Both the position numbers and the translations under genes were made by a program. The notes under the pieces were generated by a model. That model searched no databases. It was not told the DNA's origin and saw nothing but the letters and a program-made list of their open reading frames with translations. A stretch of DNA of 64,000 bases from Escherichia phage kaaroe, in the sequence record MN850574.1; one strand, given 5' to 3'. This document shows, one piece after another, positions 2-52,311 of this stretch. Position 1 is the first letter of the stretch. Every line of letters starts with the position of its first letter.

Positions 2-331
2 GATTTAGTAGAAATCAACATTCTGACAGAACAACGTCAGAAGAACATTTTCTCTATCTATCTGAATACGGTCGCCGGACAATATCGCGAAATGAAGAAA
101 GAGAATCCAAAATTTAAACCAGATTGGGATTCCTTCTGGACGATGAAGCGTATGTTCTTGAATGTAAAAGCATTACCAGCTTGCACCATTCATAAGTCAC
201 AAGGGATCAGCGTAGACCGCGTGTTCCTGTATACTCCTTGCATGTGTACAGACAATGTTGACTTTGAACTGGCAATGCAGTTATTATATGTGGGTGTTAC
301 CCGTGCGCGGTATCGAGTAGACTATATTTGA
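2..331 (+). CDS. dda: SF1 DNA helicase, C-terminal fragment (Dda-like); 5' end upstream of window
   Basis: Frame open from window edge; helicase motif VI-like TIHKSQG...VGVTRAR; lies upstream of dexA as in T4. Confidence 0.55.
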   Translation, partial: DLVEINILTEQRQKNIFSIYLNTVAGQYREMKKENPKFKPDWDSFWTMKRMFLNVKALPACTIHKSQGISVDRVFLYTPCMCTDNVDFELAMQLLYVGVTRARYRVDYI

Positions 332-8976: not shown

Positions 8977-10323
8977 ATGAATAAATCAGTTACTTACCGC
9001 AGCCTTGAAAGCATTGTACATAATGAAGCTAAGGAATATGCGATCTATTCTGCCGAGGAACGCGGGATTCCTCAATTAGTGGATGGGCTTAAACCAGTGC
9101 AACGCTTTGTTATGGAGTGCGCACTTCAAAAGAGTAAAGGTGACCGTAAGAAATTCCGTAAGATGGCAGATATTGGATCTGGTGTTGCTGAGTTGGGGTA
9201 TCACCACGGCGAAACTAATGCCGTAGAAGCCGGATCACTCATGGCGAATACATGGAGCAATAATACTCCACTGCTTGACGGTCAAGGTAACTTCGGATCG
9301 CGTTTAGTCCAGAAAGCAGGTGCGGCACGTTATATCTTTGCTCGCGTGCATGAAAACTTCTTTAAAATCTATAAAGATATGAATTGCGCACCTAAGCACG
9401 AAGATCTGGAACACATCCCGCCAGCGTTCTACTTGCCAGTTGTGCCAATGGTATTGGCTAACGGTATTAGTGGTATTGCTACAGGGTATAAAACTGACAT
9501 TTTACCGCATTCACTGGAAAGCCTTATTGAATGCACAGAGCTAGCACTTGCCGGAAAACTGGATAAAGAACCTAGTGTTCAATTCCCGAAATTCACGGGT
9601 AAAGTTATCCCGCGAGATGATCGCGATGGTGTGATTCTTGAGGGTACATATGAACTAAACGGCAAGACTAAACTGACAATATCAGAAGTTCCTTATAAGT
9701 TCGACCGTGAAGAATATGTAGCGGTACTGGATGCACTGGAAGAAAAAGATCTGATTGTATCGTATAATGACCGTTGCTCTAAGGACGGATTCAGATTTGA
9801 AGTAACACTGAAACGCGATTATTTCAAAAGCGAAGATGAATCCGCTCGACATGAGCAAATCATGAAGGATTTTAAACTAACGCAGTTAGTAGCCCAGAAT
9901 ATCGTAGTAGTTAACGAACGTGGTTTAGTAGAAGTATTCGAGAAAGCGAGCGATCTGATCCGTCGATTCGTCGAAATCCGATTAGGGTATGTCGATAAAC
10001 GCATTGAATTGATGCAAGCGGAAACGCTGGAAGCATACAATTATGCAATGGCTAAAGCCGAATTTATCGATCGCGTAATTAAGGGCGAAATCGAGCTACA
10101 GGGCAAGAAAAAGGCCGAGGTAATGCAATCCATCAATGGACATGAAAAACTGCGTCCATACGCCGATAAGCTAGTTTCTATGCCATTGTATAGCGTTACT
10201 CAAGAAGAGTATGATCGACTGGTCAAAGATGCCGATAAACATCATAGTGAATATGAGTATTGGACAAAGACGACCGCAATGAAGGAATATAAGAAAGATC
10301 TTAAAGAACTTAAGAAGGGTTGA
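8977..10323 (+). CDS. 52: DNA topoisomerase II medium subunit (GyrA-like)
   Basis: ATG after GAGGTG SD; GLKPVQRFV and active-site AARY motifs; T4 gp52-like. Confidence 0.9.
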   Translation: MNKSVTYRSLESIVHNEAKEYAIYSAEERGIPQLVDGLKPVQRFVMECALQKSKGDRKKFRKMADIGSGVAELGYHHGETNAVEAGSLMANTWSNNTPLLDGQGNFGSRLVQKAGAARYIFARVHENFFKIYKDMNCAPKHEDLEHIPPAFYLPVVPMVLANGISGIATGYKTDILPHSLESLIECTELALAGKLDKEPSVQFPKFTGKVIPRDDRDGVILEGTYELNGKTKLTISEVPYKFDREEYVAVLDALEEKDLIVSYNDRCSKDGFRFEVTLKRDYFKSEDESARHEQIMKDFKLTQLVAQNIVVVNERGLVEVFEKASDLIRRFVEIRLGYVDKRIELMQAETLEAYNYAMAKAEFIDRVIKGEIELQGKKKAEVMQSINGHEKLRPYADKLVSMPLYSVTQEEYDRLVKDADKHHSEYEYWTKTTAMKEYKKDLKELKKG

Positions 10324-44849: not shown

Positions 44850-45318
44850 AATTGATATCTATGCGGGTGGACCTTATCCATCGGGTGAATTGAGTAATTT
44901 CAATAAAAGACCATTCCGTCTATTTGGTTGCGATATTAACAGCACAGAAGGATTTTTACAGGGGCTAAGATTTAAGAACCCTCAGAGACAAAGAGAAATC
45001 TTTTTGATGCACGGTGGCAAAGCAAAAAGAACCGGAAGAACTGAAAAGATTGAGAATCACATGTTATATTTTCAGGGTCGCCAGATTCATCGAATGAGTG
45101 AGCATTATTACAGACTGGTACATCTGGCATTTGTTACGATGGCACGGAATAACCCAGAATTTTGTAAAGCATTACTCTCTACCGGAAATAAGAAATTACG
45201 TCATAGCATAGGTGGAACTGATCCGTTAAAGACTATATTGACTGAATCGGAATTTTGTAGTATCCTCAATGATATTCGTGAACGTTTAACAAAACGAGGT
45301 GAAAATGTCAATTCTTAA
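44839..45318 (+). CDS. NADAR-like (YbiA/DUF1768 family) protein
   Basis: 159 aa; SNF...PF...G....S.E...Q..RF..........AK.TGR pattern. Confidence 0.55.
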   Translation: MTSEIDIYAGGPYPSGELSNFNKRPFRLFGCDINSTEGFLQGLRFKNPQRQREIFLMHGGKAKRTGRTEKIENHMLYFQGRQIHRMSEHYYRLVHLAFVTMARNNPEFCKALLSTGNKKLRHSIGGTDPLKTILTESEFCSILNDIRERLTKRGENVNS

Positions 45319-46801
45319 TATCATTAATCAGCTTGCAGCAACAGACAAAACATCGCTGAAAGAAAAGATTCTGAAAGAATCCGCGAGCAATGAAACGCTG
45401 AAAGAATGCTTTTATCTGGCATATTGCAAACAGGTTACGTTTGGCGTAAAGAAATACGATAAACCGTCTCGCTATTCGTCTGTATTGTCTTTATCCGGTG
45501 CATTACAGGTCTTTAAAAATAAACTTGCCACGCGTCAAGTAACTGGTAATGCAGCATTACAGCTAGTTACCGATACTCTGACTTGCTTGTCAGAAAATGA
45601 TGCTAAAGTTGCAATGATGGTCCTGAATCGTGATCTGGAATGTGGTTGTTCCGCTACTACTGCAAACAAGGTATGGAAGAAACTGATCCCTCAGCAACCG
45701 TGCCACCTTGCATCGTCATGTTCTGATAAGACTATTGCTAATATCAAGTATCCGGCGTATGCACAACTTAAAAGCGATGGCGCTCGTGGTATGGCTGATA
45801 TTGACGGGGAAACATTAGCAATCTATACCCGCTCAGGTAATACCTATCAAGGGCTTGATGATTTGTTTGCGGTTTTAGAGCGTCTACGAGGCCGTGGAAT
45901 TGTTCTAGATGGCGAATTGGTATATATGCCTACCCTTTCGCAAACACCAGCGCAGAACTTCGTTGAAAGCGTTTATGATGGTACTCTGTCATGGATATTT
46001 GAAGAAGAGGAAATGCCATTAACGCCAGTAGCGGAAGCAGTGAAAGAATCCGTTGTTGCAGATCGTCAGACCGGAAATGGTATCCTCAACAAATCACTTA
46101 AAGGAACTATTCCAAAAGAAGAAGCCCAATGTATTGTTTACACTGTCTGGGATGTTATCGACCGTGATGTGTATTACGGAAACGAGAAAGCAACGAAGCA
46201 ATATAAAGATCGATTCGAAGAACTAAAACAGATTGTTGAAGAACTTAACGATCCTCGTGTTCAGATCATCGAAAACACTGTAGTTAACAATATCGATGAA
46301 GCTCGCGAAGTATATCATCGTTATGTCAACATGGGCTTAGAAGGTATTATCCTTAAAAATTTACATGGTGTATTTGAAGATCGCCGTAGTAAAGATCAGG
46401 TTAAATTTAAAGAAGTGATTGACTTCGACGCGGAAATTGTTGATGTATATCCGCATAGTAAAGACCCCAATAAGGTAGGCGGTTTTACTGTCCGTAGTGC
46501 GTGCGGACGAATGATGACTAACACCGGATCGGGATTAACCGACACTACAACCGAAAAAGGTGATGATGGTATCGAACGTGTAATTCCGTTCGATCGTCGA
46601 AATGAACTCGACCGAGAAATGTTATGGGCTGACCGTCATAACCTGATTGGAAAAGTCATTGAGATGACATGCAACGGGTATATCCGCAGCAAATCACGTA
46701 AAGAAGATGAACCGGAGTTCTCTTTATTTCTCCCAATCATCAAACGTATTCGCTACGACAAGACCACTGCAAATACAGTAAAAGAGGTATTCGATGTGTG
46801 A
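45305..46801 (+). CDS. 30: ATP-dependent DNA ligase
   Basis: ATG after GAGGTG SD; motif I KSDGAR; strong similarity to T4 ligase (LTGNAA, GLEGIILKN, KFKEVIDFD, DPNKVGGF). Confidence 0.92.
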   Translation: MSILNIINQLAATDKTSLKEKILKESASNETLKECFYLAYCKQVTFGVKKYDKPSRYSSVLSLSGALQVFKNKLATRQVTGNAALQLVTDTLTCLSENDAKVAMMVLNRDLECGCSATTANKVWKKLIPQQPCHLASSCSDKTIANIKYPAYAQLKSDGARGMADIDGETLAIYTRSGNTYQGLDDLFAVLERLRGRGIVLDGELVYMPTLSQTPAQNFVESVYDGTLSWIFEEEEMPLTPVAEAVKESVVADRQTGNGILNKSLKGTIPKEEAQCIVYTVWDVIDRDVYYGNEKATKQYKDRFEELKQIVEELNDPRVQIIENTVVNNIDEAREVYHRYVNMGLEGIILKNLHGVFEDRRSKDQVKFKEVIDFDAEIVDVYPHSKDPNKVGGFTVRSACGRMMTNTGSGLTDTTTEKGDDGIERVIPFDRRNELDREMLWADRHNLIGKVIEMTCNGYIRSKSRKEDEPEFSLFLPIIKRIRYDKTTANTVKEVFDV

Positions 46802-47270
46802 TAATGAAGGGGCGAAAGCCCCTAAACCTAAAAAATTGTCAAAGAAAGAGCAACGCCAGATCCTGAAAATGAAATATGGTGGACGTTGTGCCTATTGTGG
46901 CGAGGAACTAGGGGATCGCTGGCACGCGGACCACATCAAACCAGTATTGCGACGCTCAAAGGTAGTCTATGATGAAAATGGACGAATTGCCCGTAATGAT
47001 GATGGATCATGGAAATATAAGGTTGTAGGAATGCATAAACCGGAGCATGATATACTTGATAACATGAATCCGGCGTGTGTGCAATGCAATCTTTATAAAA
47101 GCTGTATGGGCTTAGAATACTGGCGTAAGTGTATACGCGAGAACTTCCAGAAGTACATTCAGCGCAATATGGGATTGCGAGCGGCTAAACGCTTTGGCTT
47201 GCTGTCAATCCACGACCAGCCAGTAGAATTTTATTTCGAAAAGTACGATCGCGAGCATCAAGAAAAATAA
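46794..47270 (+). CDS. HNH endonuclease
   Basis: 158 aa; CAYCG...HADHIKP...N...CVQCN; start overlaps ligase stop. Confidence 0.75.
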   Translation: MCDNEGAKAPKPKKLSKKEQRQILKMKYGGRCAYCGEELGDRWHADHIKPVLRRSKVVYDENGRIARNDDGSWKYKVVGMHKPEHDILDNMNPACVQCNLYKSCMGLEYWRKCIRENFQKYIQRNMGLRAAKRFGLLSIHDQPVEFYFEKYDREHQEK

Positions 47271-47356: not shown

Positions 47357-47668
47357 ATGAAATACATCGTAACGCTGCCAATGATTGACTTCGACGGAAC
47401 CATGAACACCCAGAAGACCATGAGCGCGGAGAACCAACTGAAAAACGCTACCCTGATTCGTGAAGTTCGCAAGGCACTGGCAAAAGAATTTAACACCAAA
47501 ATTCATTCTGTAACTGGCGAACGTTTCGCGGATCATCTTGATATCAACATCAAACCAGTGCGCAACGGTGTTATCTCTGTAACAACCAGCCGCCCACATG
47601 CTGACGCTGATAATCTGACCGCTCGCGCAGAAGATGTAATTATGACCGTTATCATGGAAAAACTTTAA
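47357..47668 (+). CDS. hypothetical protein (103 aa); paralog of 50675-50962
   Basis: ATG after GGAGAATCAAAA; shared VRKALAKEFN motif. Confidence 0.5.
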   Translation: MKYIVTLPMIDFDGTMNTQKTMSAENQLKNATLIREVRKALAKEFNTKIHSVTGERFADHLDINIKPVRNGVISVTTSRPHADADNLTARAEDVIMTVIMEKL

Positions 47669-47676
47669 AAAAGTTG

Positions 47677-47705
47677 TTGACAGGGGATCACCGATCCCCT
47701 ATACT
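47677..47705 (+). promoter_or_regulatory. PeSL-like early promoter cassette (hairpin in flipped orientation)
   Basis: TTGACA, GGGGATCACCGATCCCC, TATACT; conserved leader. Confidence 0.6.
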
Positions 47706-47936: not shown

Positions 47937-48239
47937 ATGGCAAAAGTTCAGGTAGGTGAGGTCTTCAAAATGGAAGACCACACCGTGGAAGAGATGAAAG
48001 GCGCAGTATTGAAAGTAATTAATTCAATGTGGCGTAGTGTGCTTTACATCAACTTTATCGACGGTGATGTGTGGTGGGCTAGCGATAGCGATAAATGGGA
48101 TATCAAGTTCTACAAAGGTCATACTCACTGGTTAGGATCAGAGGATGTTGTAGAAGTTCTTGCGGTTGATGTTATGCCAGGAGAGATCGAGAATCTTAGC
48201 GGAACAGCAAAAGAAGCATTGACACGCCATTTTGCGTAA
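47937..48239 (+). CDS. hypothetical protein (100 aa), HxHW-family paralog
   Basis: ORF track; GHTHWLGSEDVVEVLAVDV. Confidence 0.5.
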   Translation: MAKVQVGEVFKMEDHTVEEMKGAVLKVINSMWRSVLYINFIDGDVWWASDSDKWDIKFYKGHTHWLGSEDVVEVLAVDVMPGEIENLSGTAKEALTRHFA

Positions 48240-48295
48240 TGTAGTATAACAATAATCGGGAGGGTAATACTCTCCCACAAATTGAGGATAATATT

Positions 48296-48487
48296 ATGTG
48301 TGGTCTTAAAATGGTTGCTGAATATAAGCGAACTGGTAATGTTATGATGTATCGACGCAATACCAACGAAGAATGGAAACCTTCAAACCGCATTAAATCC
48401 ATCCAGACGTTTATGAATAACATAAAAGAAAACCTTTTCGTTAAGCGTGCTGGTGTTGGACATTGGGAAGTTTACGAAGCTGTATAA
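48296..48487 (+). CDS. hypothetical basic protein (63 aa)
   Basis: ORF track; GAGGATAATATTATG. Confidence 0.5.
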   Translation: MCGLKMVAEYKRTGNVMMYRRNTNEEWKPSNRIKSIQTFMNNIKENLFVKRAGVGHWEVYEAV

Positions 48488-48500
48488 TTTTGAGGAAAAT

Positions 48501-48797
48501 ACTATGGAACATACTAATTTGTTTGTAGCCGAACCTTTCGTTGAAGGCAATAAAAATCTGGCTAATACCGTTATTCTTTATGAAGATTGGATCTTTTACA
48601 TCGACGAGCATTTAGATGTATTTTGTCGCACAGATAAAAGTGACCAATTTCCAATTGAAAAAAATCGAACATCAAATCATTGGTACGGCGGGAATGACGA
48701 AACCGACCTAGCTATTGTTCTAGAATCAGGCGTAGAATCTGAACATGCCAATGAAGTGGCAGACAAATTTATGAAATACGCATATAAAGCATTATAA
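48501..48797 (+). CDS. hypothetical acidic protein (98 aa)
   Basis: Internal ATG of track ORF after GAGGAAAA SD. Confidence 0.5.
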   Translation, partial: TMEHTNLFVAEPFVEGNKNLANTVILYEDWIFYIDEHLDVFCRTDKSDQFPIEKNRTSNHWYGGNDETDLAIVLESGVESEHANEVADKFMKYAYKAL

Positions 48798-48802
48798 AGT
48801 TG

Positions 48803-48831
48803 TTGACAGGGGATCGGTGATCCCCTATAAT
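48803..48831 (+). promoter_or_regulatory. PeSL-like early promoter cassette
   Basis: TTGACA, GGGGATCGGTGATCCCC, TATAAT; conserved leader. Confidence 0.6.
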
Positions 48832-48863
48832 GCACACATACCAACGAGATAGGAGAATCAAAA

Positions 48864-49031
48864 ATGTTCCAGACTAAAGCAGAATGCGAAGCATACATTG
48901 TAGCAAACCACGGTGAAGACTACCTGAAATTCGATATCGTAGTAGCACAGAAGATCACCGGAATGGTTGCAAAATATCTGGGTGTTAAAGAAGGTTACTA
49001 TCCGAGCAACGCACCGGAAATCAACAAATAA
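48864..49031 (+). CDS. hypothetical protein (55 aa); near-identical copy at 52144-52311
   Basis: MFQTKAECEAYIVANHGEDYLKFDIVVAQK...; below track cutoff. Confidence 0.5.
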   Translation: MFQTKAECEAYIVANHGEDYLKFDIVVAQKITGMVAKYLGVKEGYYPSNAPEINK

Positions 49032-49034
49032 TAG

Positions 49035-49068
49035 TTGACAATGATTAAAGGGAGTAGTAAGATACTCA
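49035..49068 (+). promoter_or_regulatory. PeSL-like early promoter cassette (degenerate palindrome)
   Basis: TTGACA ... GGGAGTAGTAAGATACTCACA; conserved leader. Confidence 0.5.
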
Positions 49069-49095
49069 CATCAAGACAACAAACGGAGAATCAAA

Positions 49096-49275
49096 ATGAA
49101 AGCTATCGAAGTTCAGAAGTACATGGAACTCATCATTGAAGGTAAAGCACATACAGTATTGACTACCCACGTAGGATATGATAAAAATGTGCATATGCTG
49201 GTAGACAATATCGGCTGGATGAAGTTTAACCCTAACGAGAACGTACAAGCTCAAGAAATGACCATCCCTTTCTAA
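49096..49275 (+). CDS. hypothetical protein (59 aa)
   Basis: MKAIEVQKYMELIIEGKAHTV...; GGAGAATCAAA SD; below track cutoff. Confidence 0.45.
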   Translation: MKAIEVQKYMELIIEGKAHTVLTTHVGYDKNVHMLVDNIGWMKFNPNENVQAQEMTIPF

Positions 49276-49287
49276 GAGGAATATATT

Positions 49288-49566
49288 ATGATGCGAATTA
49301 CTGCAACGCTGGATAAGACACACAAAGAAAGATTTTTCGGTATGATCTTAAAAACGCCGATTTTCGATAATTACCTTTATGTTGACTATGAAGGTCACAT
49401 TAGCTATAAATGTAAAAATGATATTCGTGATTCCTTTGGTGATAAATCACAAGCTGATATTCATGACCACTGGTGGAACCATGACGAACCTTTACGAGTT
49501 ATCGCAGTTGATGTAAAAACAACAAAAGAAGCTGATAAGGTAGTGAATGATTATGAGCAAATTTAA
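49288..49566 (+). CDS. hypothetical protein (92 aa), HxHW-family paralog
   Basis: ORF track; HDHWWNHDEPLRVIAVDV. Confidence 0.5.
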   Translation: MMRITATLDKTHKERFFGMILKTPIFDNYLYVDYEGHISYKCKNDIRDSFGDKSQADIHDHWWNHDEPLRVIAVDVKTTKEADKVVNDYEQI

Positions 49567-49810
49567 AGAATACAAAGCATATCAACAGATCCTGCGAGTA
49601 TACGCACCAGAGTTCGCCGAAAAGATGATGGAAGATGCATCAAAATGCCCGTCCTTTTCTGGAAACAAAAACCATTATTCTACTCGTATTGTATCATGGA
49701 AAGAAACATGTTACACTCAACAGTGGATAAACGTTTTCTCAAAAACAATTGGTTGGAATGGTGTTAATTATGGGTATTCAGAGTCAATTCAAAGATTATC
49801 GAGTGTATAA
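49553..49810 (+). CDS. hypothetical protein (~85 aa), tandem paralog 1
   Basis: ORF track; MSKFKEYKAYQQILRVYAPEFAEKMMEDASKCPSF. Confidence 0.45.
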   Translation: MSKFKEYKAYQQILRVYAPEFAEKMMEDASKCPSFSGNKNHYSTRIVSWKETCYTQQWINVFSKTIGWNGVNYGYSESIQRLSSV

Positions 49811-49988
49811 AGAAATCTGTGCTGTATTTGATGAGAAAACAGCAGATAAAATGATGAAAGAAGCGTCACAATGTTCATCTTTTGTTGATAACAAAGATTT
49901 AAGAGTAAATGAGATCGTGTGCTGGAGCGACACGAAACATGAAATTGTATGGCGTACCGTGTACTATAGCCGCGACCGAGGATTATAA
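49770..49988 (+). CDS. hypothetical protein (72 aa), tandem paralog 2
   Basis: Internal ATG of track ORF; MGIQSQFKDYRVYKEICAVFDEKTADKMMKEASQCSSF. Confidence 0.45.
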   Translation: MGIQSQFKDYRVYKEICAVFDEKTADKMMKEASQCSSFVDNKDLRVNEIVCWSDTKHEIVWRTVYYSRDRGL

Positions 49989-49989
49989 A

Positions 49990-50310
49990 ATGAAATTAAC
50001 TAAAAAGATTTTCCCAGAATTGCGTAACTGTCTGTTACTGGTTACTGAATATAAACCTTATACGATCTATTTGTACGTTGATGAAAATCTGAAAATCCGT
50101 TACTATGATTATACGTCTCCAGTGATGAAATCATTTGCTCACTCGATCGCAAATAACTGTATGAATCACAATCATTGGGTATCAGAAACGGATGACGATG
50201 CGTCAGAAGTTGTAGTGGTTGCATGGAATCTATCACCAGCGGAAGCAGATCAAGCACGCATTAAGCATTATGCGAAAAACAATTGGTTTGACCTTATAAA
50301 TGAGGACTAA
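49990..50310 (+). CDS. hypothetical protein (106 aa), HxHW-family paralog
   Basis: Internal ATG of track ORF; HNHWVSETDDDASEVVVVAWN. Confidence 0.5.
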   Translation: MKLTKKIFPELRNCLLLVTEYKPYTIYLYVDENLKIRYYDYTSPVMKSFAHSIANNCMNHNHWVSETDDDASEVVVVAWNLSPAEADQARIKHYAKNNWFDLINED

Positions 50311-50314
50311 TATT

Positions 50315-50593
50315 ATGTTCAAAGTAGGTGATAAGTTTATTCTTAGTCGTGATATTCTCCCTAATCTGAAAGGTTGTATCATCAATCCTAGTAAAAATTC
50401 ATGGTTTTATCTGTTTATCGATGATGATCTAAATGTACGCGCCGAATATAAAGAAGGTCTTCGTACTGGTCTTGGTTTCTTTCACGATCATGACCATAGC
50501 CATTGGCTAAACGGTGGATTCGAAGCAACGGTGATAGCGGTTGATGTGGATTACACAAACATCATAGAAAAATATCAAAAAATTATTTTATAA
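50315..50593 (+). CDS. hypothetical protein (92 aa), HxHW-family paralog
   Basis: ATG after GAGGACTAATATT; HDHDHSHWLNGGFEATVIAVDV. Confidence 0.5.
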   Translation: MFKVGDKFILSRDILPNLKGCIINPSKNSWFYLFIDDDLNVRAEYKEGLRTGLGFFHDHDHSHWLNGGFEATVIAVDVDYTNIIEKYQKIIL

Positions 50594-50599
50594 AAAGTG

Positions 50600-50634
50600 T
50601 TGACATAAGATCGGGTGTATAGCATAATACACCC
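50600..50634 (+). promoter_or_regulatory. PeSL-like early promoter cassette
   Basis: TTGACA; GGGTGTATAGCATAATACACCC palindrome with CATAAT; conserved leader. Confidence 0.6.
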
Positions 50635-50674
50635 ATCGAAACGAGATACACTTTCTAACTAGGAGAATCAAATT

Positions 50675-50962
50675 ATGGCATACATTACTATCACTCTGAA
50701 AGTTAACAAATTTGCTCACGCTGCACACGAAACCGATAATGCAATCCGTAACAACAAGTTCGCACGTCTGGTACGCGATGCAGTAGCTAAAGAGTTCAAC
50801 TTCAAATTTGCAGATGGTAAAGTTATCACTAAATGGACTCATGACGGCGAAACTAAAGTAGAACTTGCTGACAACTTCGCAAATCAGGAATATGCACACC
50901 GTCGCATTAATGAAATCATCAGCGATGAACTCTACTACGGTGTACAGGAAGGACTGTTTTAA
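50675..50962 (+). CDS. hypothetical protein (95 aa); paralog of 47357-47668
   Basis: ORF track; LVRDAVAKEFNFK. Confidence 0.5.
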   Translation: MAYITITLKVNKFAHAAHETDNAIRNNKFARLVRDAVAKEFNFKFADGKVITKWTHDGETKVELADNFANQEYAHRRINEIISDELYYGVQEGLF

Positions 50963-50966
50963 TATA

Positions 50967-50987
50967 CGGGGCGTTAAGCCCCCTTTT
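50967..50987 (+). terminator. intrinsic terminator
   Basis: GGGGC-GTTAA-GCCCC followed by CTTTTC. Confidence 0.5.
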
Positions 50988-51011
50988 CATCCAACTATTG
51001 AGGATAATACT

Positions 51012-51320
51012 ATGAAAGATAATATCTTTGAATTTACCCGCGAAAATCTCCCAATGTTCCGAAAGTCTCTGCTTAAACTAGAGAACAGCAATTACGATGT
51101 ATATTTTTACATCACCGAAGATCTAGAGATCCTTTACGCTGATTACCCAGGTCCGATCCGTACCTTCGAAGAAGCATCGCAGTATAAAAATGTTCACGGT
51201 CATGAGCACTGGTTACGAGAAAACCCAGGTCGCAAGAAAGCACGCGTTAAAGTGATTGCGATTGACGTAACACCAGCATACGCCGACCGGATTGCACTGA
51301 ATGATTATTTGTCTAAATGA
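51012..51320 (+). CDS. hypothetical protein (102 aa), HxHW-family paralog
   Basis: ATG after GAGGATAATACT; HGHEHWLRENPGRKKARVKVIAIDV. Confidence 0.5.
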   Translation: MKDNIFEFTRENLPMFRKSLLKLENSNYDVYFYITEDLEILYADYPGPIRTFEEASQYKNVHGHEHWLRENPGRKKARVKVIAIDVTPAYADRIALNDYLSK

Positions 51321-51327
51321 TTTTATT

Positions 51328-51353
51328 AGCCGACCTTAGCGTCGGCTTTTTTA
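51328..51353 (+). terminator. intrinsic terminator
   Basis: AGCCGAC / GTCGGCT stem followed by TTTTTTATT. Confidence 0.65.
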
Positions 51354-51376
51354 TTGCATAAAATTAAAAAAAAGAA

Positions 51377-51410
51377 TTGACACCAGATCACGCCTATAGC
51401 ATAATACACC
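51377..51410 (+). promoter_or_regulatory. PeSL-like early promoter cassette
   Basis: TTGACA ... CATAATACACCC; conserved leader. Confidence 0.55.
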
Positions 51411-51445
51411 CATCGAAACGAGATACCACTTAGGAGAATCAAACA

Positions 51446-51715
51446 ATGGCACTGACTAAAACCACTACCAACTTTGCAAAACGTCACGGCTTCGACATTG
51501 AAATCAATAGCTTTAACGATTACACTCTTCTGTGTGTATATGAAATCGAAAATGATTGCGAGTGGATGTTCAGCTATCGCGTAAACGAAGACGGATCTTT
51601 CACTTGGAACGGAAATATCTATCTTGCACAGGAAGTAAAAGAAGAACTTCCGGCGAATATCAAAGATGAGAAACATTTACGTCAAGTTTTAAAATTTATT
51701 TCTGAAAATATCTAA
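51446..51715 (+). CDS. hypothetical protein (89 aa)
   Basis: ORF track; GGAGAATCAAAC SD. Confidence 0.5.
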   Translation: MALTKTTTNFAKRHGFDIEINSFNDYTLLCVYEIENDCEWMFSYRVNEDGSFTWNGNIYLAQEVKEELPANIKDEKHLRQVLKFISENI

Positions 51716-51785: not shown

Positions 51786-52067
51786 ATGAAATTCATCAAA
51801 GCAACCGAAATCCTGAAAAACAAAGAAGCATACATCGGAAACATCGTTGGTATGAACATTCGCGGCGCTGGTAGCCAGTGGACCAAACTGGTTGATGTTA
51901 AAGCTAAAGGCGATAAAATTGAGTTCACTGTAAAAATGCTTACTCATAACGCACATATGGGTATCAAGACAAAAACGATGGCAGCAGATAAAAGCATTAA
52001 CTATCAGGGTCTGGGTGATTGGCTGAACTGGTGCAAAATGCACAATATCGAAACTAATCACGAATAA
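51786..52067 (+). CDS. hypothetical protein (93 aa)
   Basis: ORF track; GGAGAATCAAAA SD. Confidence 0.5.
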   Translation: MKFIKATEILKNKEAYIGNIVGMNIRGAGSQWTKLVDVKAKGDKIEFTVKMLTHNAHMGIKTKTMAADKSINYQGLGDWLNWCKMHNIETNHE

Positions 52068-52081
52068 TTTTAAAAAAGTTG

Positions 52082-52110
52082 TTGACGGGGATCGGGAGAT
52101 CCCCTATAAT
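52082..52110 (+). promoter_or_regulatory. PeSL-like early promoter cassette
   Basis: TTGACG, GGGGATCGGGAGATCCCC, TATAAT; conserved leader. Confidence 0.6.
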
Positions 52111-52143
52111 ACACACATAACGAAACGAAATAGGAGAATCAAA

Positions 52144-52311
52144 ATGTTCGAGACTAAAGCAGCATGTGAAGCATATATCATTGAAACCCACGGCGAAGAT
52201 TATCTGAAATTTGACATTGTAGTAGCACAGAAGATTGTAGGGATGGTTGCAAAATATCTGGGTGTTAAAGAAGGTTACTATCCGAGCAACGCACCAGAAA
52301 TTAACAAATAA
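52144..52311 (+). CDS. hypothetical protein (55 aa); near-identical copy of 48864-49031
   Basis: MFETKAACEAYIIETHGEDYLKFDIVVAQK...; below track cutoff. Confidence 0.5.
   Translation: MFETKAACEAYIIETHGEDYLKFDIVVAQKIVGMVAKYLGVKEGYYPSNAPEINK

Follow-up and report, generated by a model that had tools for sequence, protein, structure and literature searches.

A six-member family of small HxHW proteins between gene 30 and alt in an RB49-like phage

Within a 64,000-nucleotide stretch of Escherichia phage kaaroe (sequence record MN850574.1; the window), six genes for small, acidic, soluble proteins, here called P1 to P6, lie inside 3.4 kb of the hyperplastic region between gene 30 and alt (Table 1). 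The six proteins are homologous over their full length and form a genuine paralog family, the shared domain of which spans 85-110 aa; all six have a pI of 4.5-6.3 and at most two cysteines each, and five of the six carry an H-x-H-W motif. A preliminary description of the locus had listed P1 to P5, and all five open reading frames (ORFs) are present on the + strand at the starts it gave, with the peptide strings quoted for them correct. Its count fell one short, since P6 is recovered by a profile of the other members (E 1.4e-3) and cross-matches their groups in the PHROGs database. No seventh copy was found among the window ORFs or in the rest of the RB49 genome. The source phage can be placed in Krischvirus, the RB49-like T4-type coliphages, with the 4.1 kb around the family giving a 94-98% nucleotide match to 58 Krischvirus genomes, including FL37, W115 and RB49.

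Table 1. Family genes, expression signals and neighbouring genes of the locus, with the predicted structural elements of P5. Positions are nucleotides of the window unless residues are indicated; E, E-value of the leave-one-out search; dN/dS, ratio of non-synonymous to synonymous divergence; PeSL, promoter-early stem-loop.
Feature	Position	Strand	Details
P1	47937-48239	+	100 aa; RB49p208 ortholog; phrog_16486; HTHW codons 48120-48131; E 3.6e-6; dN/dS 0.13
P6	48504-48797	+	97 aa; RB49p206 ortholog; phrog_15965; SNHW codons 48672-48683; E 1.4e-3; dN/dS 0.21
P2	49288-49566	+	92 aa; RB49p203 ortholog; phrog_15972; HDHW codons 49462-49473; E 9e-10; dN/dS 0.24
P3	49990-50310	+	106 aa; RB49p200 ortholog; phrog_9345; HNHW codons 50167-50178; E 7e-12; dN/dS 0.16
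P4	50315-50593	+	92 aa; RB49p199 ortholog; phrog_17255; HSHW codons 50495-50506; E 2.6e-8; dN/dS 0.12
P5	51012-51320	+	102 aa; RB49p197 ortholog; phrog_9345; HEHW codons 51201-51212; E 2.8e-14; dN/dS 0.27; modelled protein
Sigma-70-type early promoter (PeSL)	47677-47705	+	TTGACA-17-TATACT, 11/12; upstream of the P1 and P6 operon
Perfect sigma-70 promoter	48803-48831	+	TTGACA-17-TATAAT, 12/12; equivalent to RB49 PeSL206/205; upstream of the P2, P3 and P4 operon
Weaker sigma-70-like promoter	49035-49063	+	10/12; directly 5' of 49096-49275 and P2; promoter annotated at the equivalent place in the GEC-3S record
PeSL early promoter	50600-50628	+	11/12; upstream of 50675-50962 and P5
Terminator-like stem-loop	50968-50982	+	between 50675-50962 and P5; terminator annotated at the equivalent GEC-3S site
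Terminator-like stem-loop	51328-51347	+	closes the P5 unit; annotated terminator in G2248 and GEC-3S
Two overlapping phrog_8471 paralogs	49547-49810, 49770-49988	+	directly 5' of P3; PHROG matches; candidate functional partners
DNA ligase (gene 30)	45299-46801		alignment to the RB49 record
HNH endonuclease	46794-47270		alignment to the RB49 record
P5 predicted elements	residues 5-7, 13-16, 19-23, 29-34, 40-45		β, α, β, β, β
P5 predicted elements, continued	residues 52-56, 57-77, 78-84, 88-100		α, loop with H64-E-H66-W67, β, α

The unity of the family was established by leave-one-out searches, in which a profile built from the other members was run against all 609 ORFs of the window. Each left-out member was the best non-training match (E 1.4e-3 to 2.8e-14), and in the runs of the five members noted earlier the next-best ORF had an E-value of at least 0.15. 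Pairwise phmmer searches against the same ORFs likewise placed family members in most of the top non-self positions, with P3 and P5 matching each other at E 1e-12. The homology extends over about 95 aa at a pairwise identity of 18-31% and takes in a (Y/F)LYID-x-x-L-x-V β-hairpin that is conserved within the N-terminal half. The shared C-terminal block of the preliminary description therefore stands, whereas its divergent N-termini cannot be read as unrelated. The window proteins are full-length members of PHROGs 9345, 15965, 15972, 16486 and 17255 (E 1e-49 to 1e-63), all of which are labelled 'unknown function'. PHROGs thus distributes six paralogs over five groups; however, 23 of 28 diverse members match phrog_9345 and 16 of the 28 match phrog_15965, and these cross-matches identify the five groups as one superfamily.

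The motif itself occurs five times among the 37,133 residues of the window's six-frame ORFs that reach 60 aa or more, against 0.32 occurrences expected by composition, and all five lie in family ORFs. Together with leave-one-out E-values down to 2.8e-14, this gives the shared motif the statistical support on which the preliminary description had made its claim depend. Its general form is (H)-x-H-W-hydrophobic, in a loop about 15-25 residues ahead of the last β-strand, as found in the window copies. Of 103 cluster representatives, 101 have H-W and the two without the motif are frameshift-truncated; the first His is kept in 99 of 102 motif occurrences. P6 has SNHW in both the window phage and RB49 and HNHW in most of its orthologs, indicating that the first His is not strictly required. 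Between the two His, 101 of the 102 motifs carry T, N, D, E or S. The His pair and the Trp are the sole invariant polar feature of the family and are located between helix 2 and the last strand. An acidic residue follows the motif in 101 of 102 cases, which is near the compositional expectation (D+E 16%; about 71% by chance) and was not used as evidence.

Selection was analysed by pooled Nei-Gojobori dN/dS in 11 Krischvirus genomes, that is, the window and ten others. All six paralogs are present and intact in all 11 and are real protein-coding genes under purifying selection, with dN/dS of 0.12-0.27 compared with 0.03-0.06 for the ligase, HNH endonuclease and methyltransferase genes. Non-synonymous change is nevertheless 4-25 times that of these core genes (proportion of non-synonymous differences, pN, 0.013-0.087 vs 0.003-0.006). 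Synonymous divergence reaches 0.26-0.34 in P5 and P6 against about 0.10 in core genes, pointing to an exchange of diverged alleles. Within ortholog groups, changes cluster at the N-terminus and in the loops next to the motif, while the hairpin and HxHWL are unchanged. P5 is frameshifted in kvi and JSE, showing that the loss of a single copy is tolerated, as would be the case for accessory genes; truncated P6 and P3 alleles also exist. The family is old, stably kept and fast-evolving for this genome, without a recent diversifying burst, given the low identity among paralogs, the fixation of six copies in all 11 genomes and the occurrence of several subfamilies side by side in uncultured sister phages. 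The local paralog cluster in a hyperplastic region proposed in the preliminary description is confirmed, a recent or ongoing expansion is not, and its view of the genes as diversifying is contradicted by the gene-wide dN/dS values.

Structure prediction, one of the checks proposed for the family, gave a confident fold for P5. The AlphaFold2 model, computed with a 28-sequence family alignment, has a predicted local distance difference test score (pLDDT) of 86.1 and a predicted template modelling score (pTM) of 0.81, and describes an α/β domain. Confidence is lowest, at about 69, in the block of residues 61-70 that holds the motif loop. Foldseek searches of the model against the PDB returned no match at E < 0.4. 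In BFVD the sole matches at E <= 1e-3 were Krischvirus paralogs, with template modelling (TM) scores up to 0.79 at 33% identity, confirming that the fold is shared. PDB sequence searches yielded only Spindlin at E 0.12 with one family profile (A2), nothing with another (A3) and nothing relevant with P4 alone, and none of the 28 members matched a Pfam or NCBIfam family at the curated cut-off.

Several known domains were considered and rejected. A JAMM/MPN identity (E...HxH...SxxD) came from a sub-threshold PROCT match of P4 and was unseen in other members, in the PDB profile search and in the fold searches. A KOW/Tudor/SH3-like barrel had been raised by the Spindlin match and by P0084, a P4 ortholog named 'KOW2-KOW3 of Spt5' in nr; the former was lost with a broader profile, and hhalign gave 0.1% against a NusG KOW sequence. 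Comparison with T4 gp31.1 gave 0.3% in hhalign, which disposes of a gp31.1/WYL relationship. The HIT motif (H-phi-H-phi-H-phi-phi) does not fit, as the residue between the two His is polar and there is no in-register third His, and no HIT chain appeared in the fold searches. T4-type internal proteins (IPs) are defined by a gp21-cleaved N-terminal capsid-targeting sequence, IP loci and late or virion expression. The six proteins have no common N-terminal leader, and their genes lie between gene 30 and alt without a late promoter upstream.

The distribution of the family was assessed by searching 5.8 billion proteins twice with a word index and by running a family profile exhaustively with HMMER against 1.84 billion cluster representatives. 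The word-indexed searches returned orthologs of the six paralogs alone, and the profile search gave 20 proteins at E <= 1e-3, all from Krischvirus or uncultured sister phages. By these sequence searches, the family is confined to one lineage of T4-type phages, that of RB49 (Krischvirus). The divergent HxHW homologs have Krischvirus genes as their best sequenced-phage match, at no more than 40% identity, and their contigs represent uncultured sister phages, one of which shares the gene 30-to-alt layout and has a ligase gene that is about 72% identical to that of Krischvirus at the nucleotide level. P1-, P2- and P3-like genes on one of these contigs (L002) keep the relative order of the window, and one contig (L006) carries two family members only in the same region. 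The family profile found no match in the 118-138 kb segment of T4, a phage that has alt.1 alone between gene 30 and alt. Every database source names the family proteins 'hypothetical', GenBank has them under many accessions, and the literature on these ORFs yielded nothing beyond the papers on promoter-early stem-loop (PeSL) cassettes.

Alignment to the annotated RB49 record shows that the family region is bounded by gene 30 and an HNH endonuclease gene on one side and by genes for a DNA methyltransferase and Alt, an ADP-ribosyltransferase, on the other; all ORFs in between are 'hypothetical protein' in that record. The HNH endonuclease gene starts 8 nt within the 3' end of the ligase gene (46794-46801). 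The region is one of the hyperplastic regions of RB49 and phi1, which are dotted with PeSL cassettes (PMC2839356). Three further paralog pairs lie in it, belonging to phrog_7474 (47357-47668 and 50675-50962), phrog_8471 (49547-49810 and 49770-49988) and phrog_8009 (48864-49031 and 52144-52311), where the second phrog_8009 copy was assigned by eye from its translation and the other copies by PHROG matches. These pairs indicate that the whole block was shaped by segmental duplication and that the HxHW family is not alone in this. The window is without RB49 ORFs 196.1, 196 and 195 and without ORFan192 (51320-51446 and 52067-52144 compared with 9742-10252 and 11061-11537 of L001). At the ORF192 site it has a phi1-like topology with a single PeSL, corresponding to the PeSL-mediated indel described previously (PMC2839356).

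The family genes are located inside PeSL-bounded operons, never in promoter-proximal position, and the promoters upstream of them are exclusively sigma-70-like. In lacZ reporter assays of the RB49 counterparts of two elements of the region, PeSL206/205 was active as a promoter and PeSL211/210 as a terminator (PMC2839356). No match to the late promoter (TATAAATA) or to a MotA box was found on the + strand between 46.5 and 53 kb. Judging by promoter type, the family genes are probably expressed early; expression of P5 would need read-through or attenuation at the stem-loop that precedes it. Promoter-proximal genes carry GGAGAATCA-N-ATG, while each of the six family genes has its own GAGG-type Shine-Dalgarno sequence. 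The 9-mer GGAGAATCA combines Shine-Dalgarno sequence and spacer just 5' of the ATG, forms part of the conserved PeSL leader and occurs in 15 exact copies on the + strand of the window (4129, 11020, 12038, 38971, 39258, 47345, 47728, 48852, 49085, 50662, 51433, 51774, 52133, 52382 and 54687) and in none on the - strand. Internal genes, including the six family members, have GAGGA-type initiation regions unlike it. P3 and P4 are 4 nt apart, and 1 nt lies between the end of the gene at 49770-49988 and the start codon of P3, a tight packing that suggests translational coupling.

Two natural fusions were found in metagenomic contigs of the Logan collection. The first, P0091 (203 aa; 823-1434 of the 2.1-kb contig L002 from SRR8048117), consists of two HxHW-family domains in tandem; three more single-domain members are encoded on the same contig, giving five family domains in four genes. 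The simplest reading of this tandem protein is that single-domain members may dimerise. A single-sequence AlphaFold2 prediction of P0091, run to see whether the domains pack, gave no usable model (pLDDT 34). The second fusion is a 266-aa ORF of an uncultured relative (300-1100 of contig L003 from SRR8048112), in which two phrog_8471-like domains are joined to a P3-like domain with 43% identity to P3. In the window, its parts are present in the same order as three packed genes, namely the two phrog_8471 paralogs and P3. The phrog_8471 genes overlap by 41 nt (49770-49810) in different reading frames. In the Rosetta-stone sense, the fusion suggests a functional link between P3-type and phrog_8471 proteins.

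We hypothesize that the six paralogs are early accessory proteins without a structural role, produced within minutes of the onset of infection. Each would use the common scaffold and its HxHW loop for binding. The partner could be a protein of the host or of its defences, a small ligand, for example a nucleotide, or a metal ion coordinated by the His pair, and the variable loops around the motif would set the specificity of each paralog. The proteins would probably act as dimers, as the tandem fusion may indicate, and at least the P3 type would work with the small phrog_8471 proteins encoded just upstream. We give this broad reading about an even chance. Metal binding and host interaction, both raised in the preliminary description, are plausible inferences. 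Several observations weigh against the reading. The first His is replaced by Ser or Asp in 3 of 102 motifs, there is no invariant third metal ligand, and the Asp of YID and that of AVDV are each replaced in some paralogs. A metal site at the His pair would follow from sequence and not from model geometry. Each fusion is known from one short metagenomic contig. Finally, a conserved, housekeeping-like part in infection would agree better with purifying selection and the fixation of six copies than an arms-race target does.

Other explanations of the same data have to be considered. Chance or compositional likeness among unrelated, possibly non-coding small ORFs would agree with the low pairwise identity, but is refuted by the leave-one-out E-values, the excess of the motif, the cross-matching of five PHROGs, the dN/dS values in 11 genomes and a confident fold shared with the BFVD paralogs; we regard it as having practically no chance of being right. 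The His pair might instead mark a minimal metal-dependent enzyme, such as a hydrolase whose substrate is a nucleotide signal, RNA or DNA ends or a modified host protein, in which HxH and a nearby carboxylate hold the ion while the Trp stacks on the substrate. This seems unlikely, since the acidic residue by the motif is near background and neither an invariant third ligand nor a general base is found. The domain, moreover, has just about 95 aa, with the motif loop as the least confident part of its model, no enzyme family was matched by profile or fold, and it would be unusual for a single operon block to encode one enzyme as six diverged paralogs.

The six proteins could also assemble with the phrog_8471 proteins, and maybe with further neighbours, into one hetero-oligomeric early complex that serves a single conserved step of host takeover. 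The retention of all six together in every genome compared speaks for this, as do the tight packing with its possible translational coupling and, as Rosetta-stone evidence for physical association, the fusions of family domains with each other and with phrog_8471 domains. A sister contig with two members only, tolerated frameshifts of single copies in kvi and JSE, and the origin of each fusion in a single contig speak against it, and we consider such a complex rather improbable. Alternatively, the paralogs may be anti-defence sponges or inhibitors, each neutralising a separate immune system of E. coli, for example as a trap for a signalling nucleotide in the manner of Tad1, Tad2 and Acb2; to this we assign a slim chance. 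Equally doubtful as the enzyme and the complex is a bolder version of the binding hypothesis, in which the HxHW domain would be a previously unseen small fold serving as a reusable binding scaffold, with six copies, dimeric and partly associated with phrog_8471 proteins, each neutralising a different immune pathway or sequestering a different nucleotide or metal early in infection of hosts by phages whose DNA, as is typical of the RB49 type, has unmodified cytosine. If this is true, the HxHW proteins would make up a new superfamily of anti-defence proteins.

T4-type phages have small early proteins for host takeover and anti-defence, among them AsiA, Arn, Srd, Dmd and Acb2. The HxHW proteins resemble these in kind, as acidic proteins of about 10 kDa whose genes lie in hyperplastic regions, stand under early promoters and are singly dispensable, but are unrelated in sequence and fold to these and to all T4 proteins. 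JAMM/MPN, cupin, metallo-beta-lactamase and HIT proteins also have a His-x-His pair, whereas the HxHW family lacks their folds and accessory motif residues. The same genes, as RB49 ORFs 197, 199, 200, 203, 206 and 208, belong to the PeSL-associated ORFans of RB49 and phi1, located between the same PeSL cassettes of the same region and without database homologs (Arbiol et al. 2010, PMC2839356). That study treats them as unrelated ORFans, and neither 'paralog' nor 'gene famil' occurs in its text. PeSL-cassette ORFans are PeSL-flanked and variably present, ORFan192 being an example; in contrast, the HxHW genes are never promoter-proximal and occur in 11 of 11 genomes. What PHROGs holds as five groups is here treated as one superfamily, and the unity of these genes as a single family, marked by its own motif and an orphan fold, appears undescribed so far.

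Paralogous small early genes are a familiar kind of content in the hyperplastic regions of T4-type phages. These regions are thought to hold adaptive host-interaction genes, most of which are single ORFans that offer no experimental guide. Several Krischvirus phages are therapy candidates and model phages. The present result is a clean family definition rather than a functional discovery. The locus offers six conserved paralogs, one mutable invariant four-residue motif, a confident model without known relatives and two fusions that nominate partners, which makes the family a tractable entry to the role of Krischvirus early accessory genes.

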